A stretch of DNA of 47,257 nt from an uncultured Bacilli bacterium (GTDB lineage Bacteria > Bacillota_I > Bacilli_A > RF39 > UBA660). The stretch covers positions 1-47,257 of the forward strand of contig CALVQN010000002.1 in the NCBI GenBank assembly GCA_944358135.1, read 5' to 3'. How positions within the stretch are numbered: the first letter of the stretch is position 1; the number at the start of each line of letters is the position of its first letter. The notes under the pieces are model-generated. The model ran no database searches and was not told the DNA's origin. It saw only the letters and a program-made list of their open reading frames with translations. A program made the translations under genes and the position numbers. Of this stretch, positions 6,924-30,822 are shown piece after piece.

Positions 6924-6928
6924 GTTTA

Positions 6929-6952
6929 ATAGAGATATTTTCTCTATTTTTT
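6929..6952 (+). terminator. Rho-independent terminator after the ATPase gene
   Basis: ATAGAGA (6929-6935) pairs with TCTCTAT (6941-6947), followed by TTTTT. Confidence 0.6.
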
Positions 6953-7117
6953 CTTTACATAAATAAATATTTTATTACAACATATATGAAGAATACCATG
7001 ATAATTTAACGATAAAGATATTATTCCTCTAAATTACAAATTAAAAAAACAAAAATTATTAAATTAAAGATAGAATATCATATTTATTTTTGATACAATA
7101 AAAAAGGAGGTATAAAA

Positions 7118-9298: not shown

Positions 9299-9343
9299 TT
9301 TATAATAGCAAAATTTTATGATATAATTAAAACTATAAAGGAT

Positions 9344-10003: not shown

Positions 10004-10160
10004 TGGAAGGAAATTTTATTATGACAAAACCCACTATTGAAGATTTATTTTATGAGATGATAATTGATGAAAAATTTTGAAACAAAAGCACTTGAATTAA
10101 TAAATAATGGAGTAGATATTAATGCTTAACAAGAAAGCTAAATTATTATAATAAAAAAAT

Positions 10161-13722: not shown

Positions 13723-14220
13723 TTAAATGATTATATTCATTTTTCCTTCTTGAAAAATTCTTTCATCCATTAATTTTAACTCATGAGAAATAATTGGTTT
13801 AAATTCCATTTGCTCTAATATATCTTTTTCAAGATCAACACCTGGAGCGATTTCAATTAAAGTGAGCCCATTACTTTCAAGTTTAAAAACTGCTCTTTCT
13901 GTTACAAATAAAATATTTTGTTGATGAATAGTTGCATATTTAGCAGAAAAAGTAATTTGTTCCACATTCTTTTTAAATTTCTTATATTTACCTTCCTGTA
14001 AAATATTTAATTTACCATCTTTAACTTCAACTTTAAGTCCTCCAGCTGTAAATGAACCCATGAAGATAATATTTTTTGTACTTTGAGTGATATTGATAAA
14101 ACCGCCTGGACCAGAAACACGGTTTTCAAGTTTTGAAACGTTAACATTTCCTCTAAAATCTACCTCGGCAAGTCCCAAAACAGCTTCATCAAGAATACCA
14201 CCATCATAAATATCAAACAT
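13723..14220 (-). pseudogene. C-terminal remnant of an acyl-CoA:acetate/propionate CoA-transferase (Pct-like)
   Basis: 165 aa matching only the C-terminal third of enzymes that are about 500 aa (GPGGFINITQ, FMGSFTAGGLKVEV.DGKL.I..EGK..KF, VTERAVF.L...GL.L.EIAPGVD). No N-terminal domain and no RBS. It abuts another truncated gene. Confidence 0.65.
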
Positions 14221-16073: not shown

Positions 16074-16087
16074 GTAAAAATAAAAAA

Positions 16088-16103
16088 CTCCGTAAATACG
16101 GAG
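16088..16103 (-). terminator. Intrinsic terminator reading on the minus strand, directly downstream of the tRNA-Thr 3' remnant
   Basis: CTCCGT-AAAT-ACGGAG hairpin. On the minus strand it is followed by TTTTTTA (complement of 16082-16087). It may also stop the + strand metallophosphoesterase transcript. Confidence 0.5.
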
Positions 16104-16114
16104 AATAAAACATA

Positions 16115-16131
16115 ATGGTGCTGAATGACTG
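16115..16131 (-). repeat. Distal direct repeat (att-like): a copy of the 3' end of tRNA-Thr
   Basis: ATGGTGCTGAATGACTG is identical to 29465-29481. On the minus strand this is the 3' T-stem strand, the acceptor strand, the discriminator and CCA of the tRNA at 29466-29539. Confidence 0.7.
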
Positions 16132-16164
16132 TTTAGAGTTTTAGTTTTTTATTAGAAAAAGTAC

Positions 16165-16198
16165 AACCCAAAATGCCTTAAAATGGGCATTTTGGGTT
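16165..16198 (+). repeat. Perfect 13-bp inverted repeat (hairpin) just inside the left island end
   Basis: AACCCAAAATGCC (16165-16177) pairs with GGCATTTTGGGTT (16186-16198) around an 8-nt loop, followed by ATTTTTG. No upstream + strand gene needs it as a terminator. Confidence 0.45.
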
Positions 16199-16246
16199 AT
16201 TTTTGATTAAAGCAAAATAAAAAAATTAAAAAAAATCATGTTTTTT

Positions 16247-16258
16247 TAAGGCGTAAAA
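16247..16258 (+). repeat. TAAGGCGTAAAA motif, left-end copy
   Basis: The same 11-mer, TAAGGCGTAAA, occurs twice in tandem at 29395-29416 near the other island end, in the same orientation. Confidence 0.4.
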
Positions 16259-16444
16259 CAAAAAAATGGATGGCAAATTATAGCAAGATAAAAAATATAT
16301 TTTTACACTATTAATTCATTTAAAATTGCCCATGTTACATTGGTATATTAAGTTTTTCAATTTATTGAAATAAACCTGCTGTTTTTTAGTTAAAAATTTG
16401 ATACAATATAGTAGAAGTAAATCAAATTGAAACAGAGGGATGGT

Positions 16445-17428
16445 ATGAACAAATTAGCTGAAAGACAAAAAGAACTACTTTTTGGAAATCTTAATGAGCA
16501 AGAATATAAAATAAAGCAAAAAGAATTTTTAGAATTATATTATAAGTTAAGAAAAAAAGAGGAAAGTGCATGGTATAGCAAATTATCTTTAGAGCAAAGG
16601 AAAAAAATCCATAAATTCATTTTAGCTCTTTATAAAGTTAAAAATAGATTAGGTGGTTTTTCATATCAAATCTTGGGAGATGAAAGAACTGCGACAGATA
16701 GACCAATCATTTTTGTAGTAAGTCATGTAGGTAAGTTTGATGTTGAAGTAGTTAGTGAAGCAATAAAAGATCATTATTATTTATTATCTGGAGATTTTGA
16801 ACATATTCAAGGTATTATGGACGTTCCATTCTTGGGATTAAATGGTGTATTTTACTTTAATGAAAAAGTAAAAGAAGATCGTAAATTAGTATCTAAAAAA
16901 ATGATAGACCATTTATGTTCTGGGGGAAACCTCATGTATTTTATTGAAGGAACTTGGAATATTACTCCCAATTTACCAATGCTACCATGTTATTGGGGAA
17001 TAGTTGATATAGCAAAAGAGGGAAATGCAATTATTGTCCCTATTGCAGCCGAACAATATGGTAAATTATTTAAAATCAAAATTGGCAAGAATTTTGATAT
17101 GAATTTATATGGCTCTGGAAATGCTGAAAAATCAAGGGCAATTGAAGATCTGCGAGATGTAATATCTACATTAAAATGGGATATTTGGGAAACAGAAAAG
17201 GTTAGTAGAAAAGAAATTCCAGACGATTATTGGATAAAATATGTAGGTGATAGATTCAAAGAATGGCCATATTTTAACGAAGAATATATAGATGGTTTAA
17301 TCTATAAGCCTAAAGGAATTTATACAGAAAATGAAGTCTTTGAGCCGATAAGAGCTTTGATTCCACAAGAAAAAGCAGAATATGTAGTTAAGTTAGAGAG
17401 AAATAAAGTGGTCACCAAGGAAATATAA
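16445..17428 (+). CDS. Lysophospholipid (PlsC-type) acyltransferase family protein
   Basis: HX4D motif (SHVGKFD) and FIEGTWN (compare FPEGTR) motif. ATG at 16445 after AGAGGGA. Confidence 0.65.
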   Translation: MNKLAERQKELLFGNLNEQEYKIKQKEFLELYYKLRKKEESAWYSKLSLEQRKKIHKFILALYKVKNRLGGFSYQILGDERTATDRPIIFVVSHVGKFDVEVVSEAIKDHYYLLSGDFEHIQGIMDVPFLGLNGVFYFNEKVKEDRKLVSKKMIDHLCSGGNLMYFIEGTWNITPNLPMLPCYWGIVDIAKEGNAIIVPIAAEQYGKLFKIKIGKNFDMNLYGSGNAEKSRAIEDLRDVISTLKWDIWETEKVSRKEIPDDYWIKYVGDRFKEWPYFNEEYIDGLIYKPKGIYTENEVFEPIRALIPQEKAEYVVKLERNKVVTKEI

Positions 17429-17516
17429 AATTTAATAAAATATTTATTTAATGAACTTTAATTTTTATTAAATATATAGTATAATTTTTATAAGATAGTG
17501 TAAAGGTAGTGATCAT

Positions 17517-18920
17517 ATGTCTAATGGATATATTGTTGGGTGTGCATTAGTAATTTCAATATTAATTACTATTATGTTTAGTATCAAATCAAAGGTTACA
17601 AATATAGAAACAAAAATATTTAAGAAAATGCTTTTTGTTAATATTTTAGAATCCCTTATGACAAATCTGATTTTCATAGTCGCCATTACAATTGATTCTA
17701 CTTTTATTTTAAAAATTCTAAACCGAATCGATGTTATTTTAATTGTTGTTTGGTGTAGCTTAATGTTTTATTATATATATTCAATTACAAGCAAAAAAGT
17801 GGAACAACGTATTAAAAAGTTTGTTATCTTATTGGATATTATTATAGTTTTTTTTGCTTTATTTTTAGATGTTACCATTATTAATGAAAATGGGATTATG
17901 AACTCAACAGGAATGCTTACATATTTAGGTTTTATTGGTGCGAGTTTATATATAATATTTATGATTTTAACATTGATTATGATTAGAGATAAAAAAGATA
18001 ATTTAGATAAAAATAAATATATTCCACTATATTTTTTGATAGGTATGCTTATCTTAGTAGCAGTTTTAAGATTAATTATACCAGAGATTAATTTTATATC
18101 TATTGTTATTAGTTTAGTTGATATGATTATGATTTTTACAGTAGAGAATCCAGATGTAAAAATGCTTAATCAAGTACTACTAGCAAAAGAACAGGCTGAA
18201 AAGTCCAATAAAGTAAAATCGGATTTTTTGTCAAGTATGTCACATGAGATTAGAACTCCATTAAATGCCATTGTGGGGTTTAGTGAGTTAATAGATAGTG
18301 CCGAAACTTTAGAAGAAGCAAAAGAAAATAGTAAAGAAATTTTAGAAGCTTCTAATACATTATTAAATATGCTATCTAATGTAATTGATATTGCTCAAGT
18401 AGAAGTGGATAGTGTAGAAATAAAAGAAGTTTCATATGATTTAGAAAAAGAACTTAAAAATATATGTAGGTTGTACCAATATAAATTAGAAGAAAAACAT
18501 TTAGACTTAGATATAGATATAAATGTTCCCAAAATGCTAAAAGGGGATATTGATAAAATTAAAAGAATTGTTGCTAATTTATTAGATAATGCAATTAAAT
18601 ATACTGACATGGGCTATATCTCGCTAGTAGTTAATTCATCAATTAAGAATAACCTTTGTAATTTAGAAATACGTATACAAGACACAGGAATTGGTATTGA
18701 TCAGAAAGTAATAAATCACTTGTTTGAAAATTTTGTTAGATCTAGTGAACATAAGGATTCCAATAAATCAGGCATGGGGTTAGGATTATCAATTACCAAA
18801 AAACTTGTCGATTTAATGAATGGAAGTATTGAGTGTGAATCAAAAGAAGGTACAGGAACAACATTTATTGTTAGAATATCTCAAAAAGTAGGTGATGAAT
18901 CTGAAAGCATTAGTAGTTGA
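17517..18920 (+). CDS. Sensor histidine kinase with a polytopic membrane N-terminal domain
   Basis: Six to seven TM helices, then the H-box SHEIRTPLNAI, the N-box LLDNAIKYT, and G-boxes DTGIGI and GMGLGLSI. Confidence 0.85.
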   Translation: MSNGYIVGCALVISILITIMFSIKSKVTNIETKIFKKMLFVNILESLMTNLIFIVAITIDSTFILKILNRIDVILIVVWCSLMFYYIYSITSKKVEQRIKKFVILLDIIIVFFALFLDVTIINENGIMNSTGMLTYLGFIGASLYIIFMILTLIMIRDKKDNLDKNKYIPLYFLIGMLILVAVLRLIIPEINFISIVISLVDMIMIFTVENPDVKMLNQVLLAKEQAEKSNKVKSDFLSSMSHEIRTPLNAIVGFSELIDSAETLEEAKENSKEILEASNTLLNMLSNVIDIAQVEVDSVEIKEVSYDLEKELKNICRLYQYKLEEKHLDLDIDINVPKMLKGDIDKIKRIVANLLDNAIKYTDMGYISLVVNSSIKNNLCNLEIRIQDTGIGIDQKVINHLFENFVRSSEHKDSNKSGMGLGLSITKKLVDLMNGSIECESKEGTGTTFIVRISQKVGDESESISS

Positions 18921-19257
18921 TGATAGTTTAATCAATCTTAGAGTAGCTCAAAAATTGTTGGAACACTTAAATTTAGAAGTAGATACTGCCCTTAGTGGTA
19001 AAGAGTGCTTAGAAAAAGTTAAGAGTAATTCATATGATATTATTTTTATGGATATAATGATGCCTGAAATGGATGGCGTGCAAACATTTCAAAATTTAAA
19101 GTCAATAGAAGGTTTTTCTACTCCGGTTGTTTCTTTAACAGCGGACGCAAAAACTGGAGCAAAAGAAAGATACCTAGGCTTAGGGTTTAGTGACTACATT
19201 TCTAAACCGATTGATTTAAAATTATTAGAGAATATTATTAAAAAGTTCTCAAATTAA
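18895..19257 (+). CDS. Stand-alone receiver-domain response regulator (CheY-like, no output domain)
   Basis: LVVDDS, phospho-acceptor FMDIMMPEMDG, SLTAD and SKP motifs. It overlaps the kinase stop by about 26 nt. Confidence 0.8.
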   Translation: MNLKALVVDDSLINLRVAQKLLEHLNLEVDTALSGKECLEKVKSNSYDIIFMDIMMPEMDGVQTFQNLKSIEGFSTPVVSLTADAKTGAKERYLGLGFSDYISKPIDLKLLENIIKKFSN

Positions 19258-19268
19258 ATTTGAAGATT

Positions 19269-19296
19269 TTGCATTTTATATGAATTGTGGTATAAT
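19269..19296 (+). promoter_or_regulatory. SigA-type promoter for the greA-like/lysR pair
   Basis: TTGCAT (19269-19274), a 16-nt spacer ending in TGG, then TATAAT (19291-19296). This is an extended -10. Confidence 0.5.
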
Positions 19297-19325
19297 ATTT
19301 GTCAACAGGAGGGGGATTTTTATAT

Positions 19326-19871
19326 ATGAAGGAAACAGAAAAAATTTATTTGGATCAAAAAGGATACCAACAATACTTGCAAGAAATTGAAGATTTAAAA
19401 GAAAGACTAAACGAGAATAGTAGGCAAAAATCATCTGCCTACACAAATGCTGTTGGGGATGGATGGCATGATAACTTTGAATTCGAAGAAGCAAAAAGAG
19501 AAGAATTTAAAATTATGGGATTACTTCGAGACAAAGTTGAAGGATTAAGTAGGATTGTGATTATAGATAAAAATGAAAAATCACAAAATGAAAACGATCT
19601 TGTGGATATTGACGATTATGTAAGTGTTTTATTATTAATGCCAGATGATGAAACAGAACATATGGTCTTTAGATTGGTTGCTTCGTTAAGTACCAATAGA
19701 GGCATAAAAGAAGTTTCTCTGAATAGTCCAATGGGAAAAGCAGTATATGGTAAAAAAGTAGGAGAAACTGGAAAATATCAAGTAAATGGAAATGCTTTTT
19801 TAGTTCAAATACTGGCTAAATCAAAAGATTTAACTGAAGATTTGGAAAATAATAATTCATTAAAAAGGTAA
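19326..19871 (+). CDS. GreA/GreB-family transcript cleavage factor paralog
   Basis: ATG at 19326 after GGAGGGGG. N-terminal coiled coil with tip GDGWHDNFEFEEAK (compare GreA GDLxENAEYxAAK). C-terminal SPMGKAVYGKKVGE (compare SPIARALIGKxVGD). Confidence 0.65.
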   Translation: MKETEKIYLDQKGYQQYLQEIEDLKERLNENSRQKSSAYTNAVGDGWHDNFEFEEAKREEFKIMGLLRDKVEGLSRIVIIDKNEKSQNENDLVDIDDYVSVLLLMPDDETEHMVFRLVASLSTNRGIKEVSLNSPMGKAVYGKKVGETGKYQVNGNAFLVQILAKSKDLTEDLENNNSLKR

Positions 19872-19873
19872 GT

Positions 19874-20764
19874 ATGAATTTTAATTATTTAGTAAATTTA
19901 AATTTATACAGAACATTTTACTTTGTCGCCACTTCTTCGTCTTTTAAGGAGGCATCAGTAAAATTATATATGTCTCAACCTGCAATAAGTAAGCAGATAA
20001 AAGAATTGGAAGATATTTTAGGTGTGAAACTATTTACTAGGTTTAATAAAGGAATCGAGCTAACAAAAATAGGTAGAATTCTTTTTAACCAATTAGAGAA
20101 TGCTAATTTTTATCTAAAAGAATCTATTAATCAGATAGAACAAATTAAAGACTTAAAAGCGGGAGAATTAATTATAGGATGTCCATCTCATATTACTTCG
20201 TTTTATTTATTAGATAAAATAGAAAAATTTAAAACGAATTATGGTAATGTTGAGATAAAAGTGGTCAATGGTTCTACGAGCGAAATGCTAAATGATTTAT
20301 ATCATCATAAAATAGATTTTATGATTGATTTTGATCCAATAGATAATAAATACCATGATTTTAAGATTGAAGTTCTAGATTATTATGATACAGTATTAAT
20401 TGCTAATTATAAATTTGATAAAAAAATAAAGAATTTAAATGATCTAATTGATCAGAATTTTGTTTTACCTTTGCCAAGGAGTTCTGTACGAAAGAACTTT
20501 GAAAAAATATTATTAAATAATGGCATTTCAATTAACGTAGGATTGGATTTAGATACAACTGATCTAATAATTTCGGCTGTAAAAAGAAATTTTGGTATCG
20601 GATATGTAATAAAAGAATCTGTAAAGGAAGAATTAAAGCAAAAGTCTATAAAAGAATTAAAATTAAATTATGACCTTCCAAAATTAAAATTAAATTTAGT
20701 ATATAATGAAAATTTTTTAACACCCTCAGCAAAAGTGTTTATTGATAACTATATTAGAGTTTAA
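19874..20764 (+). CDS. LysR-family transcriptional regulator
   Basis: N-terminal wHTH F..VA...SF..AS..L.MSQPAISKQIKELE..LGVKLF.R, followed by a substrate-binding domain of about 200 aa. Confidence 0.85.
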   Translation: MNFNYLVNLNLYRTFYFVATSSSFKEASVKLYMSQPAISKQIKELEDILGVKLFTRFNKGIELTKIGRILFNQLENANFYLKESINQIEQIKDLKAGELIIGCPSHITSFYLLDKIEKFKTNYGNVEIKVVNGSTSEMLNDLYHHKIDFMIDFDPIDNKYHDFKIEVLDYYDTVLIANYKFDKKIKNLNDLIDQNFVLPLPRSSVRKNFEKILLNNGISINVGLDLDTTDLIISAVKRNFGIGYVIKESVKEELKQKSIKELKLNYDLPKLKLNLVYNENFLTPSAKVFIDNYIRV

Positions 20765-20776
20765 CAATTTTTAAAA

Positions 20777-20813
20777 AAGATGTCAAACCTTAAGTGTTAG
20801 ACATCTTTTTTTT
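20777..20813 (+). terminator. Rho-independent terminator after lysR
   Basis: AAGATGTC (20777-20784) pairs with GACATCTT (20800-20807), followed by a T run. Confidence 0.6.
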
Positions 20814-20824
20814 ACTATAACCTC

Positions 20825-20860
20825 CAGTTATTTCAAATTAAAAAACAGTTATTTGAATTT
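20825..20860 (+). promoter_or_regulatory. Repeated candidate LysR-binding site upstream of the viperin operon
   Basis: CAGTTATTTCAAATT (20825-20839) and CAGTTATTTGAATTT (20846-20860) are direct repeats 21 nt apart. They also contain the inverted pair TTCAAAT/ATTTGAA. The second copy overlaps the -35. Confidence 0.35.
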
Positions 20861-20881
20861 ATATCAATATAAAGGTATAAT
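20853..20881 (+). promoter_or_regulatory. SigA-type promoter of the viperin-centred operon
   Basis: TTGAAT (20853-20858), a 17-nt spacer, then TATAAT (20876-20881), about 20 nt upstream of the HAD gene start. Confidence 0.45.
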
Positions 20882-20901
20882 GTTTCTAGTAGGTGATTGT
20901 G

Positions 20902-21765
20902 ATGTCCAAAATTAAATTGATAGCAATTGATATTGGTGGGACTTTAATTGATGATAACAATAATATTCCGCCGGAAAATATTGAAATATTAAAAAAAATG
21001 AAGAAGCAAGGCATAAAAATAGCACTAGTTACTGCAAGAATGCTATCCTCAACAAAATACATTAGTAACGTAATTGAATGTGATTATGGAGTATATGGAA
21101 ATGGAAGCAATATCATAGACTTAAACAATAACAAAGTGCTTTATTTAGAAAAGTTATCAAATAGAAATTTAGAAAGTTTGGTAAATTTTGGAAAAAAACA
21201 AAATTTATATATTCACTTAAATCAAGTTTTTCAAGAAGTATCAGATCAAAAAAAATATTTTGCTTTAAAGCATATTCTTTTAAACAAAAAATATCCTAGT
21301 AATCTTCAAAGCAATGTAGAAGTTGTTTCGAGTTTAAAAGATTACATTAATAATACCGATAATATTGTAAAATTAGTTTTTGTATCAAAGAAGAATTTAG
21401 ATGTAATAAAAGAAAAAATATCAAAAGAGTTTCCAGACATTTTCATAACTGAATATAATACGAATCTAAAAGAAACTGCAATTAATGAGATTATTAATTA
21501 CATTGAGATAGGAGCGAAAGCTACAACTAAAGCAGAAGGTGTTAAAAAATTGGCAAATATACTCAATTTAAATCAAGAGGAGATTCTAGTTATCGGAGAT
21601 GGAAACAACGATATAGAAATGTTTAAAGCATTTAAGAATTCAGGTTGTTTAAAAAATGGAACATCAGAAGCTAAAGTTAATGCTAATTATGTTTCAGAAA
21701 AAAACAATAATGAAGGCGGATTAAGTGAAATAATAGAATATTATATTAATAAAGAGGAGGAGTAA
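20902..21765 (+). CDS. HAD-IIB (Cof-type) phosphatase-like protein with an atypical motif I (DIGGT)
   Basis: KLIAIDIGGTLID (motif I), VTAR (motif II region) and GDGNNDIEMF (motif IV). Cap-domain size is typical of Cof. ATG at 20902 after AGGTGA. Confidence 0.75.
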   Translation: MSKIKLIAIDIGGTLIDDNNNIPPENIEILKKMKKQGIKIALVTARMLSSTKYISNVIECDYGVYGNGSNIIDLNNNKVLYLEKLSNRNLESLVNFGKKQNLYIHLNQVFQEVSDQKKYFALKHILLNKKYPSNLQSNVEVVSSLKDYINNTDNIVKLVFVSKKNLDVIKEKISKEFPDIFITEYNTNLKETAINEIINYIEIGAKATTKAEGVKKLANILNLNQEEILVIGDGNNDIEMFKAFKNSGCLKNGTSEAKVNANYVSEKNNNEGGLSEIIEYYINKEEE

Positions 21766-21771
21766 TGAATA

Positions 21772-22380
21772 ATGAAAATAGCGATTGAGGGTATGGATGG
21801 AGTTGGAAAAACCACTTTAGCAAAAAAATTGGCTCAAGAATATAATTTTAAATATATTGAAAAGCCACTAATGGACTTTTTTGAAATTGATAATTTAGAT
21901 ACTAAAGCAATTTATGGCCAAATTTGTGATAAATTATATCAATTTAATAGCGAAATTCCTAAAGCTTGGTTTTTCGGACTAGGTAATGTCTATACATTTT
22001 TAAAATATAAGGATGAAAATATAATTATTGACAGGCATTTTGCCTCAAATTATTTTTGGAATGGAACAGAAGAAACAAATTGCATTTTTAAAACTATGAT
22101 TGATCTTGTAGGTGTGCCGGATCTTACTATTGTACTGTATGCTTCCATTGAAACTAGAAATAATAGATTAAAAAGAAGGGATGCTTTAGATAGAGATATA
22201 TACGATCCTGAAAAACAAGTATTGGGAAGTGATAAAATGATAAATTTTTTAGAGAATTTTCACATCCCTTATGTTCTCATTAATACTGAAGGAAAAACAA
22301 AAGAAGAGGTTTTTAATGAATCCAAATTAATTATAGATGGATTACAATTAGATAGTTTTTCAAGAAAACGTAGGAGGTAA
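21772..22380 (+). CDS. Thymidylate-kinase-fold nucleoside/nucleotide monophosphate kinase
   Basis: P-loop IEGMDGVGKTT, DRHFASNY (compare TMPK DRY..S) and lid-like RLKRRD. The RBS is embedded in the end of the HAD gene. Confidence 0.65.
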   Translation: MKIAIEGMDGVGKTTLAKKLAQEYNFKYIEKPLMDFFEIDNLDTKAIYGQICDKLYQFNSEIPKAWFFGLGNVYTFLKYKDENIIIDRHFASNYFWNGTEETNCIFKTMIDLVGVPDLTIVLYASIETRNNRLKRRDALDRDIYDPEKQVLGSDKMINFLENFHIPYVLINTEGKTKEEVFNESKLIIDGLQLDSFSRKRRR

Positions 22381-22381
22381 A

Positions 22382-23095
22382 ATGTTACAGTTTTTGGGAA
22401 TAGGTGGTGCTTTTTCAGTTGATCTAGGAAATACATCCGCATTTTATAAAAAAGAGAATGAATTATTTTTATTGGATTGTGGTGAAGATGTCTTTGGCAA
22501 TATATTGAAAAACCATTTATTAGAAGGAGTCACTAAAATTAATATTCTTATTACTCATTTTCATAGTGATCATGTTGGTAGTTTAGGTACTTTGGTATTT
22601 TACTGTGATGCAAGCAATTTAGAGGAAATTAATATTGTTTTTCCAAATAGAGAAAAATTGGTTGAATTAATTAGGCAGTTTGGTATACAAAATTGTAATA
22701 TTAATATCTATACACCGAAAGAGTTCGCTAGATTAAAAATTAAAGAATATCGTCAAGAACATGATGTGATTGAGGCTTATGGGTATATAATAAAATTGGA
22801 TGGAAAAACAATTTATTATTCTGGAGATACTAAATCTCTTCCTGATGAAGTTTTCGCTCTTTTGATTAAAGGAAAAATAGATTATTTTTTTCAAGATGTT
22901 AGATTAAAACAAAACCCATATCATTTATCATTAGAAGAATTAGAAAGTAAAATACCATTTAATTTAAGAAAACAAATTAATTGTATGCACTTTGTATCAG
23001 AAGCAGAAATCAACGAAGTTACAGAACATGGTTTTTCGAGAGTTAGAAGGTTTGAAAGCGAGGAAAAAAATGGAAATATTAAGTCCAGCAAGTAA
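22382..23095 (+). CDS. MBL-fold metallo-hydrolase (RNase Z / PhnP-like phosphodiesterase subgroup)
   Basis: LGIGGAF...LLDCGE...ILITHFHSDHVGSLG (HxHxDH), with later YSGDT and MHF motifs. Its start lies 1 nt after the kinase stop. Confidence 0.7.
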   Translation: MLQFLGIGGAFSVDLGNTSAFYKKENELFLLDCGEDVFGNILKNHLLEGVTKINILITHFHSDHVGSLGTLVFYCDASNLEEINIVFPNREKLVELIRQFGIQNCNINIYTPKEFARLKIKEYRQEHDVIEAYGYIIKLDGKTIYYSGDTKSLPDEVFALLIKGKIDYFFQDVRLKQNPYHLSLEELESKIPFNLRKQINCMHFVSEAEINEVTEHGFSRVRRFESEEKNGNIKSSK

Positions 23096-25151
23096 TATGA
23101 GACATATACAGGTTGCAATTGATAATAAGGCAAATGCTGTATATGGAGGTTTGAAAAATTGGAATGCTAGAAATAAGGCAATTAATTTTACAGAAGCCGA
23201 ATATAATCAATTAATAACAATGTTACATCAAAATAATATAAAATTCTTTTTGACTTTAAATATTCTAATGCTTGATAATGAAATTGAAGAAGTAATAACA
23301 TTTTTGAAGAAAAATTCTTTGCCCGATGCTTTCATAGTCACAGATATTGGATTAATACAGGTATTAAAGCAAGAATTTCCTAATGTTCCATTACATTTTT
23401 CAACACAATTTGGTTGTCATTGTATTGACGATGTTAATTTTGTAAAGGCTATTGGCGGAACAAGGGCTATTTTATCTAGGGAACTTACATTAAAAGAAGT
23501 GGAAAAAATCAGAAATAATACAGATATTGAGTTAGAGTGCTTTATTTGGGGATCTCAATGTCTAAGTTTTTCTGGGTTATGTTTTTTTGGCAGTTTGATC
23601 AATGGCGGAAGTGGTAATAGGGGGAAATGTATCACTTTATGCAGAGATGTTTACTCGGTTAATGAAAATGGTCATTTGTTATATGTTCCAGATATGGATT
23701 GTATAAATTTAATAAGTAAATTAGATAAAATAGATTGCCTAAAATTGGAGGGACGTCGTAGAGATCCTAAAGAAATTGAAAAAATTTTACAACAAATTTC
23801 TAATAAAGAAACATCGGACCAAAATGTAGGATATTTATATGGAACAAATAGTAAGGATAATAATCAATATGAACTAATTAATTCTAGAATTAAGCCAGTA
23901 TTTCAAGCAAATGAACTAAAGAATCGAGACGACTATGATGTGTTTATAGAATACCAAAATGGTAAGCCAATTAGATTTTCGAATAATTATAATAATCCAA
24001 ATGTATTTTATGTATACTCAGAAATTAAAAGGAAATATAGCTTGACTAAAAAGAATATTAGTATCGATTTAACTTTTGATGAGAATGTTGTATCTGAAGT
24101 ATTATATGTCAATTATAAAGGGGATGGACATACATTTTTTAGAGATAATAATAGTAATGATGATCAAATTGTGTTAGATTTTGATGAATTGATTCGGCGA
24201 TTATCTTTAAATGATAAAATAAATATTTATAAAATAAAATTCAAAAAGGGGCAATATGATAAATATCTAGTCAGTAAATCTATGTATGATAAAATGATAA
24301 ATTATATTCTAGATGATTGTAAAAATACACGTGAAACTTATCCAACAATTCCTTTAAAACTTAATAAAATATTATTAGAAACTCAACAGGAAGAGATTTT
24401 AACCGAATTTGTTAAAGATAAATTCGTAAAAGTGATATATGATATAAGTACAATAGATAAACTAAAAAATATTCAAAATATTATAGATCAATATGGTGAT
24501 AAGATAATTTATAAATTACCTTTATTCAATTGGGATAGTGAAGATGTTATACCTTATATTTCTAAGCTTGAAAACAAAGAAATTATGTTTACTAGAATGT
24601 CCCAAATATATCTATCAAAAAATATTCATTTTAAAAAGAAATATGCGGATTATACAATATACGTTTGGAATAAAGAAAGTTTAAATTTTTTAAAAAATAT
24701 GGGAATTCAAGAGTTTACTTTATCACCAGAATTAGATTATGAAACTAATATGAAAATTTATAATGCTGAAAAAGTACAAGCCCTGTTGTGTGGCAAATTT
24801 CCTCTTGTTTATACAAGAAATTGCTTTAAAGAGGTTTTTAATTGTAACAATTGTATTAGAGAACAATCATGCTTAAAAACAATAGTAAATGTAGACAAAG
24901 GAATAGATTTTGAAATATTGTGTAATACTGATTATCGTTATGTATTAAGTAAAATCCCTGTGTTAAATGATTATTCAAGATTTAAAATAGGAGAAAATGT
25001 AAACTTTAGGTATATTGCACTTGGCGATAATGCAGAAAACATTAGAAAAACATTAAATATTTTAAAAGAAGTTAATTTTTATGAAAAATTAAAAGCAAAT
25101 GATTATTGGAAAGATTCTTATGAATGTAACATTATAGAAAGTAAAAGTTAG
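23070..25151 (+). CDS. U32-family protein (RlhA/TrhP/UbiU-UbiV-type putative Fe-S hydroxylase), apparently with two U32-like modules
   Basis: The ATG at 23070 (RBS GAGGAAAAAAA) gives MEILSPASN....AI...ANAVYGG, the canonical U32 N-terminus. The Cys cluster is E.FIWGSQCLSFSGLCFFGS....GSGNRGKCITLCR. The C-terminal half repeats a similar pattern (LSPELDYE....LLCGKFPLVYTRNCF...CNNC). It overlaps the MBL gene by 26 nt. Confidence 0.75.
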   Translation: MEILSPASNMRHIQVAIDNKANAVYGGLKNWNARNKAINFTEAEYNQLITMLHQNNIKFFLTLNILMLDNEIEEVITFLKKNSLPDAFIVTDIGLIQVLKQEFPNVPLHFSTQFGCHCIDDVNFVKAIGGTRAILSRELTLKEVEKIRNNTDIELECFIWGSQCLSFSGLCFFGSLINGGSGNRGKCITLCRDVYSVNENGHLLYVPDMDCINLISKLDKIDCLKLEGRRRDPKEIEKILQQISNKETSDQNVGYLYGTNSKDNNQYELINSRIKPVFQANELKNRDDYDVFIEYQNGKPIRFSNNYNNPNVFYVYSEIKRKYSLTKKNISIDLTFDENVVSEVLYVNYKGDGHTFFRDNNSNDDQIVLDFDELIRRLSLNDKINIYKIKFKKGQYDKYLVSKSMYDKMINYILDDCKNTRETYPTIPLKLNKILLETQQEEILTEFVKDKFVKVIYDISTIDKLKNIQNIIDQYGDKIIYKLPLFNWDSEDVIPYISKLENKEIMFTRMSQIYLSKNIHFKKKYADYTIYVWNKESLNFLKNMGIQEFTLSPELDYETNMKIYNAEKVQALLCGKFPLVYTRNCFKEVFNCNNCIREQSCLKTIVNVDKGIDFEILCNTDYRYVLSKIPVLNDYSRFKIGENVNFRYIALGDNAENIRKTLNILKEVNFYEKLKANDYWKDSYECNIIESKS

Positions 25152-25160
25152 GAGGCTTCT

Positions 25161-25871
25161 ATGAAGACAAAAAGTATATGGGGAAATCCCCCAAAAAGAT
25201 TATATAAGTTAATGAAGATAGCCGAAAGGGATTTTGGCAAAAAGTATACAGCTTGTATTGTAGGTTGTTCTGATGGTAAATTTTTATTACCATTTGCTAG
25301 AAAGAAAATAAGAGTTGCCGGTTATGATATTGATGATATTGCCTTATATGGTGGTCAAAAATTATTTCCAATTGTTAATGAAAAAAATAAGTATCAATAT
25401 AATAAAAATTTTAAATCTCCAGAATATGAATTGGTTGAAAAAAGAGTATTAGGAATTACAGAAAGGTTAGAGATAGAAAATTTATCTGATTATGCTTTAA
25501 TTGAAAAAAGAGATTTTTATCGTAATGTACCCAAAAAGACTTTCGATGTAGTTTTTACTAGCTGTTCTTTACATTATACAGCTAATAAAGATTTTAGTTT
25601 GGAAGATAAAACAAAAAAATTACAAAGCATTGTTTCTGTTGGAGGATATTTATATATAGATTATATGATGGCAATAGAAGAAGGAGATTATACATTATAT
25701 CCGAAAGAAAAGTTCTATCGTAAGGGTGAAATTTTAAAATATTTTGATAATAATTGGAAAATTATTTCATGCAAAGAAAACAACCTTCCATCTTTTGAGG
25801 GAGCGCATGTTGATTGTGTTAAAGATCATTTTCATAGATTTGGATATCTATTGGCAAAGAGGATTAAATAA
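25161..25871 (+). CDS. Class I SAM-dependent methyltransferase (TehB-like)
   Basis: Motif I IVGCSDGK, acidic loop GYDID and motif IV region FDVVFTSCSLHY. RBS TTAGGAGG. Confidence 0.6.
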   Translation: MKTKSIWGNPPKRLYKLMKIAERDFGKKYTACIVGCSDGKFLLPFARKKIRVAGYDIDDIALYGGQKLFPIVNEKNKYQYNKNFKSPEYELVEKRVLGITERLEIENLSDYALIEKRDFYRNVPKKTFDVVFTSCSLHYTANKDFSLEDKTKKLQSIVSVGGYLYIDYMMAIEEGDYTLYPKEKFYRKGEILKYFDNNWKIISCKENNLPSFEGAHVDCVKDHFHRFGYLLAKRIK

Positions 25872-26641
25872 TGACGAAAGAAATTTGTTGGAATATTACC
25901 GCTTTATGTAATCAAAGTTGTAAGTACTGTCATCGATTTTTAAATCTTAAAAATTTATCTTATGAAGAAAATTTAAAAATTTTGTATAATTTAATTGATT
26001 CAGGTGTGGATCATATTACCTGGACAGGTGGTGAAGCTTTGATGTTAGATTATCTTGACGATTTATTGAAGATTTCTTATGATAAAGGAATTAAAAATAA
26101 ATTGATAACTAATGGCAGGCTTTTAACAAGAAACAGAATAGACAAAATCTATAAATACTTGGATAATATTACATTATCAATTGATTCAATAGATAATGTA
26201 ATAAACGAAGCATTAGGGCGAGGAAAGTATCATTTTAAAGAAATACAAAGCATTTTAGAATATATTACAGAAAAAAAGTATGACATAAAAATTAGTATTA
26301 ATACTGTAATATGCAAGCTTAATTTACACGATGTTTGCTCTTTATCCAATTTCTTAAATATTTATAATATTTGGAGTTGGAGAATTTTCAAATTTATGCC
26401 ATTACGAGAAAAAGCAATTACTAATAAGGAAATATTTGATATTTCAATGGATGAATTTTCTAAAATTGTCAATGAAATAAGGAAGAAAAGTTTAATTCAA
26501 AATATTGATACTAGGGTTGAAGAAGATATGGAGAAAAAATATGTTTTAATACTTGCCAATGGAGATATAGTAATTACAAATCAGGGAAAAGATGAAAAAG
26601 TTGGTAATGCTTTAATAGATCGCATGGAGAAATATATATGA
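25871..26641 (+). CDS. Viperin-like radical SAM enzyme (prokaryotic viperin candidate)
   Basis: CNQSCKYC (CxxxCxxC). It is collinear by eye with vertebrate viperin: N....CN..C.YC; ITWTGGEAL vs INFSGGEPF; LITNG.LL vs IVSNGSLI; LSIDSID..IN..LGRGK vs ISCDSFDEEVN.LIGRGQ; ISINTVI...N vs FKINSVIN..N; WRIFKFMP vs WKVFQCLL; KYVLIL vs SYLILD. TAATG overlap with the methyltransferase gene. Confidence 0.65.
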   Translation: MTKEICWNITALCNQSCKYCHRFLNLKNLSYEENLKILYNLIDSGVDHITWTGGEALMLDYLDDLLKISYDKGIKNKLITNGRLLTRNRIDKIYKYLDNITLSIDSIDNVINEALGRGKYHFKEIQSILEYITEKKYDIKISINTVICKLNLHDVCSLSNFLNIYNIWSWRIFKFMPLREKAITNKEIFDISMDEFSKIVNEIRKKSLIQNIDTRVEEDMEKKYVLILANGDIVITNQGKDEKVGNALIDRMEKYI

Positions 26642-27525
26642 TTGAATATACTGGAAAACAAGTTACAATAATGGCTTGTTCAGATTGCAATGCTAATTGT
26701 GAGCACTGTTATATATCATATACTGGAAATATGACAGGCAAATATTTATTGCAAATGTGTAGATTGTTTAAAAATAAATACAAAATAATTATAAATGGAA
26801 CAGAACCATTATTGCATGAAGATTATTTTGAAGCATTCAAATTATCTGATCAAAATCGAATTTTAACAAATGGTCTCATAATTAATAGTGATGAAACAAT
26901 ATTAGATAAAATAAAAGAAACTGGTATAAAAAATATAGCAATGTCTTATCATTTTGGAACCGAAATATCTACTGTGCCACAAGATATTGTTGAACAAGCT
27001 ATAATTAAAATAAAAAAACACAATTTAAATCCAGAATTAATGTGTACAATAACTGTAGAAAACTATGATAAATTAGATGATATATGTAAAAAGACAATTG
27101 ATTTAGAAGTTAATACGATAAGATTTTTTAATTGTATTAATACTGGAAAATGCGAATCAAATTGCTCAAATTTCTGCCTTGATGACGAACAAATTAATCA
27201 TTTTTTTGATCAATTAGTTGAGGTAAGAAAAAAATATGGCAAAGATATTTTAAAAATTAAAAGAAATGGTCTATTTGGTAAAGATAGTAATAATACTAAT
27301 TATAATTTTAAGTGTGTTGCCAGTATTGATGAAGTTGTTATCACACCAGATGGAAATGTTTATCCTTGTATATTTATGGCAAAACCGGGATTTGAAATTG
27401 GTCATTATGAGAATGGCAAAATTCTGCTTTATTATCAATTAGACAATAATGAGGATAGATGTATTGCACATGATATTTTTAATAAAAAAGAATATTCCTT
27501 TTCAAAAAAACTTGTAAAAAGGTAA
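26638..27525 (+). CDS. Second radical SAM enzyme with a Cys-rich SPASM/twitch-like C-terminal region
   Basis: CNANCEHC at residues 17-24, NGTEPLL and LTNG. C-terminal Cys clusters CINTGKCESNCSNFC and C........VITPDGNVYPC. ATGA overlap with the viperin-like gene. Confidence 0.7.
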   Translation: MIEYTGKQVTIMACSDCNANCEHCYISYTGNMTGKYLLQMCRLFKNKYKIIINGTEPLLHEDYFEAFKLSDQNRILTNGLIINSDETILDKIKETGIKNIAMSYHFGTEISTVPQDIVEQAIIKIKKHNLNPELMCTITVENYDKLDDICKKTIDLEVNTIRFFNCINTGKCESNCSNFCLDDEQINHFFDQLVEVRKKYGKDILKIKRNGLFGKDSNNTNYNFKCVASIDEVVITPDGNVYPCIFMAKPGFEIGHYENGKILLYYQLDNNEDRCIAHDIFNKKEYSFSKKLVKR

Positions 27526-27626
27526 ATTTTGTTGAATAATATAAGCATATTTAATGTATGAATTAGGAGGCTTTTAATAAATTTATAAAAATAATTCTAA
27601 AATTAAATTAAAAAAAATAAAATTCG

Positions 27627-27635
27627 TGATATAAT
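27627..27635 (+). promoter_or_regulatory. Possible internal extended -10 promoter for the CYTH gene pair
   Basis: TGATATAAT in the 135-bp gap after the second rSAM gene. There is no convincing -35. Confidence 0.3.
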
Positions 27636-27659
27636 TATTATAGTTAAAGGAGTGATTTT

Positions 27660-28451
27660 ATGCCAAAGATTGAAAAAGAAATAAAAGTACTTAATATAAA
27701 CGTTGATCAAGTACAAGATAAACTTAAAGAAATTGGAGCAAAAGCCAAAGGAAAAAAAGAACAAAAAATTTATGTTTATGACGTTCCAGCTTTATACTAT
27801 CGCTTTTTAGAAATAAGAGAATTAATTAACTCTTCTAATGGGTTACTGGTAGAAACAAATTTAAAGAAATTAGAAGTGTTATTATTAGAATACATTGATT
27901 TAGAAAACGAAGAAGAATTAGCCATAGAAAAAACTTTGCTTGGACTAAACGATTTGATGGATATATTAAAATTAGATATTGATAATATTAGAGAAATATT
28001 AAACAATCAAACGTTAGAGGCTAATATGAAGAAGTTTTTAATTAATCCTAATAAGTGGGTTAGACTTAGAAAAAGTAATGATAAAATTGAACTAACCACA
28101 AAACATATTCTCAATAAAAAGCATGGTGATTACCAGAACGTTTTGGAAACTGAAATTGAAGTATCTTCATTTGAAGAAGCAAATAACTTATTAGAAAGCA
28201 TTGGCATATGTAAAAGAAATTATCAAGAAAAAATAAGATATAGTTTCGTTTATAAGGATGCACAGATTGAAATAGATATTTGGCCTATGTTAGATCCATA
28301 TTTAGAAATTGAATGCGATAACAATAAAACTATCGAAGAAATTTTAGAAAAATTGAATTTAAAAGAAAATGAAATAGTTTCTACTAATACAGAGTCATTA
28401 TATAAAAGAAAAAATATTGATATTTTACAAATTTCTACATTAAAATTTTAG
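27660..28451 (+). CDS. CYTH-domain (triphosphate tunnel metalloenzyme; CyaB/ThTPase-like) protein with an internal insertion
   Basis: N-terminal ExExK (EKEIK). Later blocks: WVRLRK....ELT.KH, ETEIEV..FEEA...LE.IG, and K.R.SF......IEIDIWP.L.PYLEIE. About 75 extra residues lie between the first and second conserved blocks. Confidence 0.65.
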   Translation: MPKIEKEIKVLNINVDQVQDKLKEIGAKAKGKKEQKIYVYDVPALYYRFLEIRELINSSNGLLVETNLKKLEVLLLEYIDLENEEELAIEKTLLGLNDLMDILKLDIDNIREILNNQTLEANMKKFLINPNKWVRLRKSNDKIELTTKHILNKKHGDYQNVLETEIEVSSFEEANNLLESIGICKRNYQEKIRYSFVYKDAQIEIDIWPMLDPYLEIECDNNKTIEEILEKLNLKENEIVSTNTESLYKRKNIDILQISTLKF

Positions 28452-28459
28452 GGGGATTA

Positions 28460-29134
28460 ATGAAAAAGAAACAAACCATTTTATGCTCTAATGACGAGAA
28501 TATAAATAAATTGATAAGTACTTTGGCTAATAAAAAAGTTTTTAATCAACTTTTAGAAGTGTTAAGAAGTATAGGCACTTTTGATACAAAAATTGAGATT
28601 TTTAAAGACGAAAGTAATTTAGATGATGAAAAGATCAAAGTGTGGTGTTTTGATCAAAATAATAATATATTTGTTTTTTGCTTATTTTCAGATGCTAAGC
28701 AAGACTTCTTTAAAATTTCTGAAGAAAGAGATGATGGAGTCTCTGTTTACTATGACTTTTCTTTATCAAAAAATTATCCATTAAGTTCCAATAATATTAG
28801 TTTTATAAAATGTGAACACATTTACAATTTTAAGCATGGAAGATTAATAACTACTAGTGAAAATGATTATAACTTATTTATACAGAATGATAATATAATA
28901 AGCATCCATGTAGATCCCTTAGATCAGAAGTTGGATGTAGATATGCTTTTAAAAGGTTTAAATTCATGCGAAACAATCAATTTAAAAAATTATATCGAAA
29001 TAGTTAATTCAATAATTACATTTCATCATTTAAACATTAATTATATTAAAGTTAGTATAGTAAGTAAATTTCAAGTTGTTAATGAATTTAAGATAAACTT
29101 TGAACCAGTACATAAAGAGACGATCAATTTGTAA
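28460..29134 (+). CDS. Hypothetical protein, last gene of the viperin-associated operon
   Basis: 224 aa. RBS GGGGGA. No TM segment and no motif I can recognise. Confidence 0.5.
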   Translation: MKKKQTILCSNDENINKLISTLANKKVFNQLLEVLRSIGTFDTKIEIFKDESNLDDEKIKVWCFDQNNNIFVFCLFSDAKQDFFKISEERDDGVSVYYDFSLSKNYPLSSNNISFIKCEHIYNFKHGRLITTSENDYNLFIQNDNIISIHVDPLDQKLDVDMLLKGLNSCETINLKNYIEIVNSIITFHHLNINYIKVSIVSKFQVVNEFKINFEPVHKETINL

Positions 29135-29183
29135 ATTGTAAGTTTTTTGAAAACATAAAGTTAGATTTTTTAGATCATTTTGG

Positions 29184-29205
29184 TACACATTAATTGTGTA
29201 TTTTT
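29184..29205 (+). terminator. Rho-independent terminator candidate ending the operon
   Basis: TACACA-TTAAT-TGTGTA followed by TTTTT. Confidence 0.4.
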
Positions 29206-29394
29206 AATTTTAAAAATATAAAATCCTTTGTTAAAAAGTGCTTTTTTGTATTTTACAGAAATGCACATGGGAAAATCTGTGATACAGACAATTAGAAAAG
29301 ATAATATGTAATATATTAAATACTATAATGACACAAGAAAAAATTAAATACATTGGATAAAAAACGACTTATAAAAAACAAAACAAGACCTAAA

Positions 29395-29416
29395 TAAGGC
29401 GTAAATAAGGCGTAAA
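29395..29416 (+). repeat. Tandem TAAGGCGTAAA x2 near the right island end
   Basis: Exact 11-nt tandem duplication. The same 11-mer occurs at 16247-16257. Confidence 0.45.
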
Positions 29417-29433
29417 AACATTTTTAAAAAGCA

Positions 29434-29455
29434 AAAGCCTTTAAATAAAGGCTTT
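29434..29455 (-). terminator. Terminator hairpin downstream of tRNA-Thr (minus strand)
   Basis: AAAGCCTTT pairs with AAAGGCTTT around a 4-nt loop. On the minus strand it is followed by TGCTTTTT. Confidence 0.5.
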
Positions 29456-29465
29456 CAAAGACATA

Positions 29466-29539
29466 TGGTGCTGAATGACTGAATTGAACAGTCCTCTGAT
29501 GCTTACCATGCATCCGTTTTACCACTAAACTAAATCAGC
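29466..29539 (-). tRNA. tRNA-Thr (anticodon GGU)
   Basis: Hand-folded 74-nt cloverleaf: acceptor GCTGATT/ATTCAGC (one U-U mismatch at 6:67), D arm GTTT-AGTGGTA-AAAC, anticodon arm GATGC-AT GGT AA-GCATC, variable loop AGAG, T arm GACTG-TTCAATT-CAGTC, discriminator A, encoded CCA. Confidence 0.8.
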
Positions 29540-29613: not shown

Positions 29614-30324
29614 GTGAATGTACCAAAGCATGTAGCAATTATTATGGATGGTAATGGTAGATGGGCAGAAAAACGCGGTTTAAAAAGAAGTATGGGTCAT
29701 TTAGAGGGAAGTAAGACTCTAGAAAAATTAGCTATTCATGCAATAGATATGGGAGTAAGTATTTTAAGTGTTTATGCTTTTTCAACAGATAATTTTAAAA
29801 GAGATGAAGAAGAAGTTAAATATTTAATGGATCTTGTGGTAAAATATTTTAATACCAAATTTGAAAAAATAAATAAAAAAGGAGTAAGAGTTATAGTTTC
29901 TGGTCGTAAAGAAAACTTAAGAAGTGATGTAGTTGAAGCAATAAATAATATTGAAGAAAAAACGAAAAATAATACTGCAGGAATTCTAAATATATGCCTA
30001 AATTATGGTGGCCAAGAAGAGATTATTGATGGAGCAATAAAACTTGCGGAAGATATCAAAAATGGTTTAGACGTAAGAAATTTTAAAAGAGAAGATTTTT
30101 ATTCTTATTTATATCATAGCCTTCCACCAATTGATTTACTAATTCGTACAGGAGGGGAATTAAGAGTAAGTAATTTTATGTTATACCAAATGAGTTATAG
30201 TGAATTTTACTTTACCAATACTCTTTTTCCTGACTTCGATAAATCAGAATTTAACAAAGCAATATTTATGTATGAAAATAGAGACAGAAGGTTTGGCGGA
30301 ATAAATGAGAAAAAGAGTAGTTAA
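29614..30324 (+). CDS. uppS: Undecaprenyl-diphosphate synthase (cis-isoprenyl transferase)
   Basis: HVAIIMDGNGRWA, AFSTDNFKR, LIRTGGE.R.SNF..YQ..YSE.YF and DF motifs. Confidence 0.9.
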   Translation: MNVPKHVAIIMDGNGRWAEKRGLKRSMGHLEGSKTLEKLAIHAIDMGVSILSVYAFSTDNFKRDEEEVKYLMDLVVKYFNTKFEKINKKGVRVIVSGRKENLRSDVVEAINNIEEKTKNNTAGILNICLNYGGQEEIIDGAIKLAEDIKNGLDVRNFKREDFYSYLYHSLPPIDLLIRTGGELRVSNFMLYQMSYSEFYFTNTLFPDFDKSEFNKAIFMYENRDRRFGGINEKKSS

Positions 30325-30760
30325 CTTCTTTGATGAGCATCGAGTAGTTCTCATTTTTCTGATTCTGATTCTGATTGTTATAATCTTTCTAAGTATAAAT
30401 TCATATCTATTTTTTCATCATGAATTTGAGTCTTTAACTTGTACAGAAGAAATAGATGATGAATATTGTTATCATAATGATATAAAGATATTTGTTAATC
30501 CAGAAAAGAGTAAAGAAGATTTTTTTACAAGATATGATGATGAAATAGAAAAATTAATAGATGATTATCATTTAGACGAATTTGACTTTTATACAGCATA
30601 TTACTATTTAGTTGCATCCAGACTAAATTATGATATCAATAGTGAATATAAAATATTACAAGATTTTTTTGAAACTTATGTAAATACTTATAATTTAGAA
30701 GAATTTTATATGGAAAATAATTTCTATTTTAATTTATTTTATCGCTACAAAATCAATTAA
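30305..30760 (+). CDS. Hypothetical single-pass membrane protein
   Basis: 151 aa with a TM helix at residues about 14-35. It overlaps the end of uppS. No recognisable domain. Confidence 0.5.
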   Translation: MRKRVVNFFDEHRVVLIFLILILIVIIFLSINSYLFFHHEFESLTCTEEIDDEYCYHNDIKIFVNPEKSKEDFFTRYDDEIEKLIDDYHLDEFDFYTAYYYLVASRLNYDINSEYKILQDFFETYVNTYNLEEFYMENNFYFNLFYRYKIN

Positions 30761-30822
30761 TCTCTTTTCCTTTTCTATGATTTGTAGTATAATACTTTTA
30801 GTTTATGTACGGGAGGGAAACT

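Follow-up and report, generated by a model that had tools for sequence, protein, structure and literature searches.

How did a sharply bounded block of 14 genes, among them an unusual viperin-like operon, come to lie beside a tRNA gene in the genome of a chicken-gut bacterium, and can it still leave? The question is raised by a stretch of 47,257 nt (here called the window) of contig CALVQN010000002.1 (GCA_944358135.1), which comes from an uncultured Bacilli bacterium of the RF39/UBA660 lineage. The host is spore-former-like and has a GC content of 26%, and its relatives carry labels such as 'Mycoplasma sp. CAG:776' or are Bacilli or Erysipelotrichales metagenome-assembled genomes (MAGs). Our answer is that the DNA at 16132-29464 is very probably an element that was integrated into the 3' end of the tRNA-Thr(GGU) gene by conservative site-specific recombination, and that it now persists without an integrase as an island resembling a cis-mobilisable element (CIME). 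Relatives were compared via exact-protein look-ups and the gene contexts of homologues, for which more than 70 loci were fetched. The DNA of the window outside the island is ordinary chromosome and encodes PriA, a sigma factor, EF-P, and PBP2.

The footprint begins with a direct repeat. The 17-mer ATGGTGCTGAATGACTG is present in only two copies in the window, both on the plus strand (Table 1), and the count stays at two even when two mismatches are allowed. None of 100 dinucleotide-preserving shuffles of the window gave any match, and the motif is G+C-rich despite surroundings of 26% GC. The sole tRNA of the window is a minus-strand tRNA-Thr(GGT) found by ARAGORN, which is also the only RNA family match between 15 and 31 kb (Rfam, 61.3 bits). 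The right copy of the repeat consists of one flanking base and the last 16 nt of this tRNA, and spans the 3' strand of the T-stem, the 3' strand of the acceptor stem, the discriminator base, and the encoded CCA. The bracketed DNA, 13,333 nt in length, is situated 3' of the tRNA. The element has a direct repeat derived from the 3' end of a tRNA on either side, and at one of its junctions the tRNA gene is complete. An earlier sequence-only reading of this locus had described the exact repeat in one orientation, its identity with the end of the minus-strand tRNA-Thr(GGU), and the position of the island 3' of the intact gene; the window search with its shuffles, ARAGORN and Rfam, and the coordinates bear out all three. 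The same reading had named a dispersed repeat family unrelated to the tRNA as a finding that would speak against it, and across the 70+ fetched loci the 17-mer is restricted to the tRNA and the far end of the island. In IMG/VR, 23 matches to the 16-mer core were set aside as chance matches in high-GC contigs or as other tRNA-Thr(UGU) genes.

Sister species place the boundaries of the island at or near the repeat. Their flanks share 74-83% nucleotide identity with those of the window, and in the blastn map the match ends at 16067 and restarts exactly at 29465. The left stop coincides with the stop codon of the metallophosphoesterase gene, 48 nt ahead of the left repeat, and inside the island blastn matches are restricted to mobile modules. 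In loci L022, L033, and L034, the 3' end of the tRNA directly abuts a hairpin terminator, an arrangement in which the hairpin arm (arm a), the core, and the tRNA are contiguous. A virtual empty site, composed of the window flanks and one core copy, is collinear with L033, L022, and L034, shows no break at the junction, and has about 95% identity with L033 as judged by eye on the printed alignment. Unoccupied attB with collinearly rejoined flanks was found in sister species only, where other cargo sits further out. The window itself has the two complementary junctions, in which arm a and the core meet the left end of the island, and arm b (the right end of the island) and the core meet the tRNA. 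Taken as sequence evidence, the junction set supports the attB/attL/attR relationship of attachment sites that is expected for integration at the 17-nt block. It had been predicted that removal of the island would restore a simple order of metallophosphoesterase, terminator, tRNA, and uppS. The collinearity of the joined flanks with the sister loci agrees with this; a genome with exactly that order was not found, because the slot is filled with other cargo in every relative seen. Related genomes with the same gene order but no repeat were also looked for, and no related genome carries that order. A scan of genome contigs with the metallophosphoesterase gave only an unrelated Muribaculaceae match, and among its more distant homologues L026 and L031 are non-syntenic and L028 ends just past the gene. 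In L022, the metallophosphoesterase gene is followed by what may be a decayed core (ATGGTGaTG); the match is only weakly significant (rough p ~0.05) and is not relied on.

The slot itself has conserved borders, with PriA and VanZ/metallophosphoesterase on one side and tRNA-Thr, uppS, and a type IV coupling protein on the other, and its content differs from relative to relative. L022 has TetR, CMD, flavodoxin, and amidohydrolase genes. In L033 (4100-9269) and about 30 similar contigs, the slot encodes 831-aa, 167-aa, and 653-aa AIPR (abortive infection) proteins; this cargo adjoins a CI-like helix-turn-helix gene and is a candidate defence island of the 'Mycoplasma sp. CAG:776' group. L060 holds a GreA-like gene followed by genes for WYL, Vut_1, phosphoribosyltransferase, guanylate kinase, FemAB, a kinase-methyltransferase fusion, and Ham1. 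The L060 operon (3668-9603, also in L061 and L062), whose Vut_1 protein is a transporter, whose fusion is a 431-aa nucleotide-kinase/methyltransferase, and whose Ham1-type protein is a nucleoside triphosphate pyrophosphatase, may be another nucleotide-analogue system. In L034, the same tRNA end is abutted by a genuine prophage with a tape measure gene (1e-76), tail fibres, and endolysin.

Terminators at the two junctions are a further line of evidence. Each core copy is followed by a minus-strand terminator of its own, and the left one is orphaned. The hairpin AAAAAACTCCGTAAATACGGAGAA, which lies directly 3' of the tRNA in L022, L033, and L034, is found in the window at 16083-16110, just outside the left 17-mer, and window positions 16083-16131 show one difference from the tRNA-proximal positions 9820-9868 of L033 (by eye, from the printed sequences). 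The orientation of the orphan hairpin fits the termination of a transcript from the tRNA position in the island-free arrangement, and the tRNA is now terminated by a minus-strand terminator that is borne by the island (29432-29457). The orphan hairpin thus reads as the former terminator of tRNA-Thr, or of arm a of an earlier element, now 13.4 kb away.

The arms of the island carry a second signature. The 11-mer TAAGGCGTAAA occurs exactly three times in 47 kb, in direct orientation and always less than 120 nt from an island end. Lambda-family integrases use arm-type sites that flank the core, and in a circular form of the island the copies of TAAGGCGTAAA would flank the core in a similar way, which is the role predicted for them here. 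Every other arm type has a tandem motif of its own, with a period of 9-11 nt, beside a terminator hairpin. The motifs differ by element type (TAAGGCGTAAA, TGTTACGTAAA, TTTTCGACCAC, and AGTTCGAAY), which argues for an element family whose members have the core in common and differ in arm specificity. Arm b, on the tRNA-proximal side of the island, is homologous to the corresponding arm of the otherwise different L060 island, with blastn homology from 29374. In sequencing runs X1 and X8, contigs match window positions 29442-29471 (the last 30 nt, up to and including ATGGTGC) and go on with an unrelated sequence, C(A/G)TTGAG(A/G)AAGTTATCTACAAC..., in place of the tRNA; their depths are 9.4 and 18.9, measured on short unitigs. 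One possible reading of this join is that another element was inserted between the island and the tRNA and has its far junction here, and the join tentatively hints at a candidate 7-nt overlap, or crossover, at the extreme 3' end of the tRNA.

Table 1. Features of the island and its junctions (window coordinates)
Feature	Position	Strand	Evidence and remarks
Orphan intrinsic terminator	16088..16103	-	CTCCGTATTTACGGAG then TTTTTT; terminator scan, minus strand only
Distal attachment-site copy	16115..16131	+	Exact repeat of tRNA-Thr 3' end; 9 conspecific contigs have it here
Non-coding left arm	16132..16444	+	Bidirectional terminator 16163-16200 (strong); one TAAGGCGTAAA at 16247-16257
PlsC-like acyltransferase	16445-17428	+	Pfam
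Histidine kinase	17517-18920	+	Pfam
Receiver-only response regulator	18895-19257	+	Pfam, NCBIfam
GreA-like factor	19326-19871	+	Pfam, NCBIfam; 45% identical to the GreA-like gene heading the L060 cargo
LysR regulator	19874-20764	+	Pfam, NCBIfam
Nine-gene operon	20902..29134	+	Pfam, NCBIfam, PADLOC
Right, tRNA-proximal arm (arm b)	29375..29464	+	Tandem TAAGGCGTAAA x2 at 29395-29416; terminator 29432-29457 (-)
Proximal attachment-site copy, 3' end of intact tRNA	29465..29481	+	Sister-species homology resumes at 29465
tRNA-Thr(GGU), integration target	29466..29539	-	ARAGORN; Rfam tRNA 61.3 bits

In the 14 island genes, Pfam, NCBIfam, and PHROGs gave no domain of an integrase, recombinase, transposase, or excisionase and none of phage or conjugation type, which confirms the earlier remark that integrase, excisionase, and recombinase open reading frames (ORFs) are absent. 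The non-coding gaps of the island are at most 330 nt and therefore too small to conceal an integrase. PHROGs and Pfam gave generic enzyme and regulator families only, with no phage structural, packaging, replication, or repressor-integrase modules, and a megablast of window positions 14-31 kb against plasmids gave no match. The prophage of L034 suggests where such a gene may once have been. Its relatives in IMG/VR carry an integrase directly upstream of the homologue of the attachment-adjacent 154-aa gene (of the tyrosine type in L083; in L077 it is a serine recombinase), and the integrase would therefore be distal to the tRNA once the prophage is integrated. At the tRNA-distal end of the island lie 295 nt of non-coding DNA and then a pair of acyltransferase and kinase genes, and this gene pair, which we infer to be captured from a chromosome, may have taken the place of an integration module.

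The 14 genes are co-oriented, and their annotation comes from Pfam, NCBIfam, and PADLOC. The operon that makes up the larger part of the cargo begins with a HAD phosphatase, a VakA-like nucleotide kinase (PADLOC VakA, 6.6e-16), an MBL hydrolase, a double U32 protein, and a methyltransferase, and ends with a viperin-like radical SAM protein (25871-26641), a second radical SAM/SPASM protein, a CYTH-like protein, and a 224-aa protein of unknown function. The viperin-like protein matches the PADLOC pVip model at 4.7e-45, and its NCBIfam viperin_w_prok score of 134 bits lies under the 180-bit cut-off of that model. IMG/VR gave no relative of either the GreA-like or the viperin-like protein, and a JGI metagenome scan with the GreA-like alignment returned unrelated contexts only, none with a tRNA. 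The acyltransferase-kinase pair is of another kind. It shares 87.8% nucleotide identity with a pair in MAG locus L073, which is located between tRNA-Arg and sporulation/EzrA genes, and the homology is confined to the two ORFs. The acyltransferase family is found throughout related MAGs (424 homologues at E<=1e-20; among those listed, mostly 63-73% identical). By its sequence relationships, the module was probably captured from a chromosome. The sequence-only reading had called all island genes accessory; this is partly right and is overstated for the acyltransferase-kinase pair, because that pair matches one in a chromosomal context of another MAG with 88% DNA identity. A side observation concerns the end of the operon: in conspecific contigs L003, L005, L006, L007, and L009, local clusters of single-nucleotide polymorphisms (4-13 per kb) are found at window positions 28000-29000, where they cover the region of the CYTH-like and 224-aa genes, and the rest of the island is nearly invariant.

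The island belongs to a mosaic family of cargo islands, and the hotspot that they occupy is also a target of several other elements and at least one prophage. The clearest case is L076. Its version of the left end of the island shares 94.6% identity with the window (about 96% for the left arm from the core inwards, by eye) and consists of a core with one mismatch, a left arm of 295 nt, and the acyltransferase and kinase genes. Homology to the window starts exactly at the core; the DNA outside it is unrelated and arm-c-like, with tandem TTTTCGACCAC repeats, a hairpin, and then ...AGATTTCCCA. Further downstream, L076 switches to L060-type cargo with 97.5% identity. The core flanks of the window and of the L060 species are only 76-82% identical, compared with 94.6-97.5% for the modules, and therefore at least one module has crossed a species boundary. 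Arm c abuts the intact tRNA in conspecific contig L008 and is also present in run X8 beside the island-type junction. Neither the arm c junction nor the ATGGTGC-CRTTGAG junction had a match in IMG/VR. Within about 40 nt of a point just ahead of the GreA-like gene, the left-hand context is different in each of L060, L062, and L076, and this point is a second recombination hotspot within the island family. In L062, a prophage with a reverse transcriptase (RVT_1, like that of diversity-generating retroelements) occupies positions 1-3625, about 40 nt upstream of the GreA-like gene. The histidine kinase of L076 (1535-2975) is split into ORFs of 191 and 303 aa, probably by a frameshift, and the response-regulator gene is absent, which suggests that the kinase/regulator module is decaying in the L076 lineage.

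The earlier interpretation of the locus as a footprint of integration into a tRNA 3' end is supported by the junction set, the homology boundaries, the hotspot, L076, and the L034 prophage at the same tRNA end. The course of events may have been as follows. A circular form with attP would have recombined with attB, most likely through a tyrosine integrase. On the element, attP would consist of arm b with its tandem TAAGGCGTAAA and terminator, the 17-nt identity block, and the left arm with the third TAAGGCGTAAA; attB would be the 3' end of the tRNA followed by its own hairpin terminator. Recombination would rebuild the tRNA from element-borne sequence with an element-borne terminator, and would displace the original 3' end and terminator by 13.3 kb. 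The integrase would then have been lost, and the tRNA-distal end is now taken by the chromosomal-type acyltransferase-kinase module. Further movement would be possible only if an integrase that recognises the island arms were supplied in trans. This product fits the definition of a CIME, because both attachment sites are kept and the genes for integration and transfer are absent.

In the host species, the island seems to be settled. Nine conspecific contigs cross the left junction, all with the island, and ten cross the right junction, nine of them with the right arm of the island; the tenth, L008, has a different arm at the tRNA and does not extend into the island. Differences from the window among conspecifics amount to 0.88/kb in the island versus 2.92 and 2.64/kb in the flanks. 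This roughly threefold lower diversity suggests either a sweep or common descent of more recent date. The island probably behaves as a fixed chromosomal island that is at present immobile. A comparison of composition with the flanks had also been proposed for this locus, and its two halves differ: GC is flat, and the distance in synonymous codon usage between island and flanks is exceeded by only 0.15% of random gene partitions (p ~0.0015), with the caveat that the flanks may be old islands.

Several observations weigh against integration of the island as described. The GC content gives no signal (26.3% for island genes vs 27.3% for flank genes), and the acyltransferase-kinase pair resembles core genes, which is unusual in a foreign island. 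The related island L060 is without a second core copy even with up to five mismatches allowed. In L034, arm a lies on the phage side; it is possibly element-borne, in which case the left flank of the window could be an older element and not native chromosome. Neither an integrase nor a cognate element with TAAGGCGTAAA arms was found, and the recombinase type and the role of the arm sites are therefore given here as predictions. No conspecific empty site was present among the 9 left-junction and 10 right-junction contigs, and in run X1 the island unitig (13.3 kb) has a depth of 15.4 against 15.6 and 14.2 for its flanks. Empty-site or circle joints were also not seen in seven runs, for which only Logan contigs were used, in which rare forms are dropped by assembly.

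It is possible, though clearly less probable than a stranded island, that the island is no dead remnant at all: it may be an integrase-less hitchhiker, satellite-like or an active CIME, that is moved by the integrases of co-resident phages or elements at the same tRNA-Thr core. Both attachment-site copies are perfect and the arm motifs are intact, and the same left end stands on a different flank in L076, with modules exchanged across species. The same communities also have several other circulating elements of this core specificity, namely the L034 prophage and arm c (L008 and X8), and the low diversity of the island relative to its flanks suggests recent spread. The window, the left end of L076, and the right end of L060 are likewise all without an integrase. 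However, arm motifs are specific to the element type, and a phage integrase adapted to other arms probably could not handle the island; no element that combines matching arms with an integrase was found. Nor was an empty site or circle junction seen in the assembled contigs, and the island is in essentially all conspecific contigs and has 1:1 depth.

A bolder version would extend this to the whole family. Here, integrase-less cassettes flanked by attachment sites, each with a GreA-like factor, a regulator, an interchangeable nucleotide-chemistry operon, its own arms, and a replacement tRNA terminator, would spread between species of the lineage via phage integrases that act at a 7-17-nt tRNA-Thr core. 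Such a phage 'satellite' for defence cassettes would swap its modules upstream of the GreA-like gene. We consider this idea speculative and rather unlikely.

An improbable alternative is that the bracketed DNA is not one unit. The left 17-mer and hairpin would be the scar of another event, such as a deleted prophage or an integrase-mediated rearrangement, and much of the interior would be relocated native chromosome. The acyltransferase-kinase pair, with its 88% identity to the core-context pair of L073 and its clade-wide family, could be read in this way, as could the phage-side position of arm a in L034 and the mosaic island family with a second hotspot upstream of the GreA-like gene. Against this, an integrating element always lands between the tRNA and its neighbour, and a core copy with the old terminator beyond the island is therefore what island integration predicts. 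L076 homology also starts exactly at the core, the same motif TAAGGCGTAAA is on both arms of the island, and arm b is common to another island at the same tRNA (L060). Finally, a chance match or an assembly artefact, which might be suspected in a very AT-rich genome from metagenomes, is effectively refuted by the shuffles and the G+C-rich motif, and by the fact that both junctions turn up again in some 19 contigs, assembled independently in several studies, as well as in Logan contigs from several runs.

As an object class, an integrase-less island linked to a tRNA is textbook material and ordinary in kind. CIMEs retain attL and attR, and accretion with an element that brings a cognate integrase can mobilise them in cis (PMC5704250). 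CIMEs and tandem accretion at the 3' ends of tRNA and other genes are known from ICESt1/ICESt3-related elements of Streptococcus thermophilus (PMC5704250). The island resembles these in that it is flanked by attL and attR derived from the 3' end of the target and is without integration and transfer genes. Elements at the same site are likewise found in tandem or in place (arm c in L008, X8, and L076; the L034 prophage), with modular mosaicism and gene capture. It differs in that no parental integrative and conjugative element (ICE) or integrative and mobilisable element (IME) with a matching integrase or conjugation module was identified, which makes ICE/IME descent and cis-mobilisation putative for the island. 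Furthermore, its host is an uncultured low-GC chicken-gut bacterium of the Bacilli/Erysipelotrichales type, and the co-resident elements are phages or of unknown type, not ICEs.

Classical tRNA islands and temperate phages of the P4-like and lambda-like kinds have tyrosine integrases and integrate into tRNA 3' ends. They share with the island an identity block from the 3' strand of the T-stem through CCA and a regenerated tRNA with a partial copy left distally. Further common points are repeats that resemble arm-type sites, some 50-120 nt away from the core on either arm, and cargo of putative defence type. The island differs from them in that it is without the defining integrase gene and without GC deviation. 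It is also similar to defence islands and hotspots, in that the content of the slot varies between relatives, from a viperin-like operon or an AIPR protein to another nucleotide-enzyme operon or a prophage. Unlike in such islands, the boundaries and the insertion mechanism at the attachment core are directly readable here, and part of the cargo is regulatory or metabolic and not defensive.

The locus provides exact boundaries (16132-29464) and a mechanism of arrival for a block with an unusual nine-gene viperin-like operon. That this operon is horizontally acquired cargo of a hotspot which, in relatives, is occupied by other defence or nucleotide-enzyme cassettes would support a defence-type role. 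For an uncultured chicken-gut lineage, the junctions also form a data set of four arm types, one core, and a candidate 7-nt overlap, which is useful toward finding cognate integrases.

Outside the island, the window has an orphan VirD4/TraG-type coupling protein gene (30805-33123) next to uppS (29614-30324) and a 151-aa ORF (30305-30760). Its position beside uppS is kept in all sister species examined (L022, L033, and L060), and the gene is a stable chromosomal gene of the clade, not a remnant of a recent conjugative element in this genome. On the other side of the island, a Fic-domain gene (9306-10149) lies between PriA and the sigma-factor gene. It has no counterpart in L022, L033, and L060, where the sigma gene directly follows PriA, and is a small lineage-specific insertion. 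In conspecific contig L018 (10330-12341), an ISL3-family transposase is inserted within the 165-aa minus-strand gene at window positions 13723-14220, at a point near 14010.

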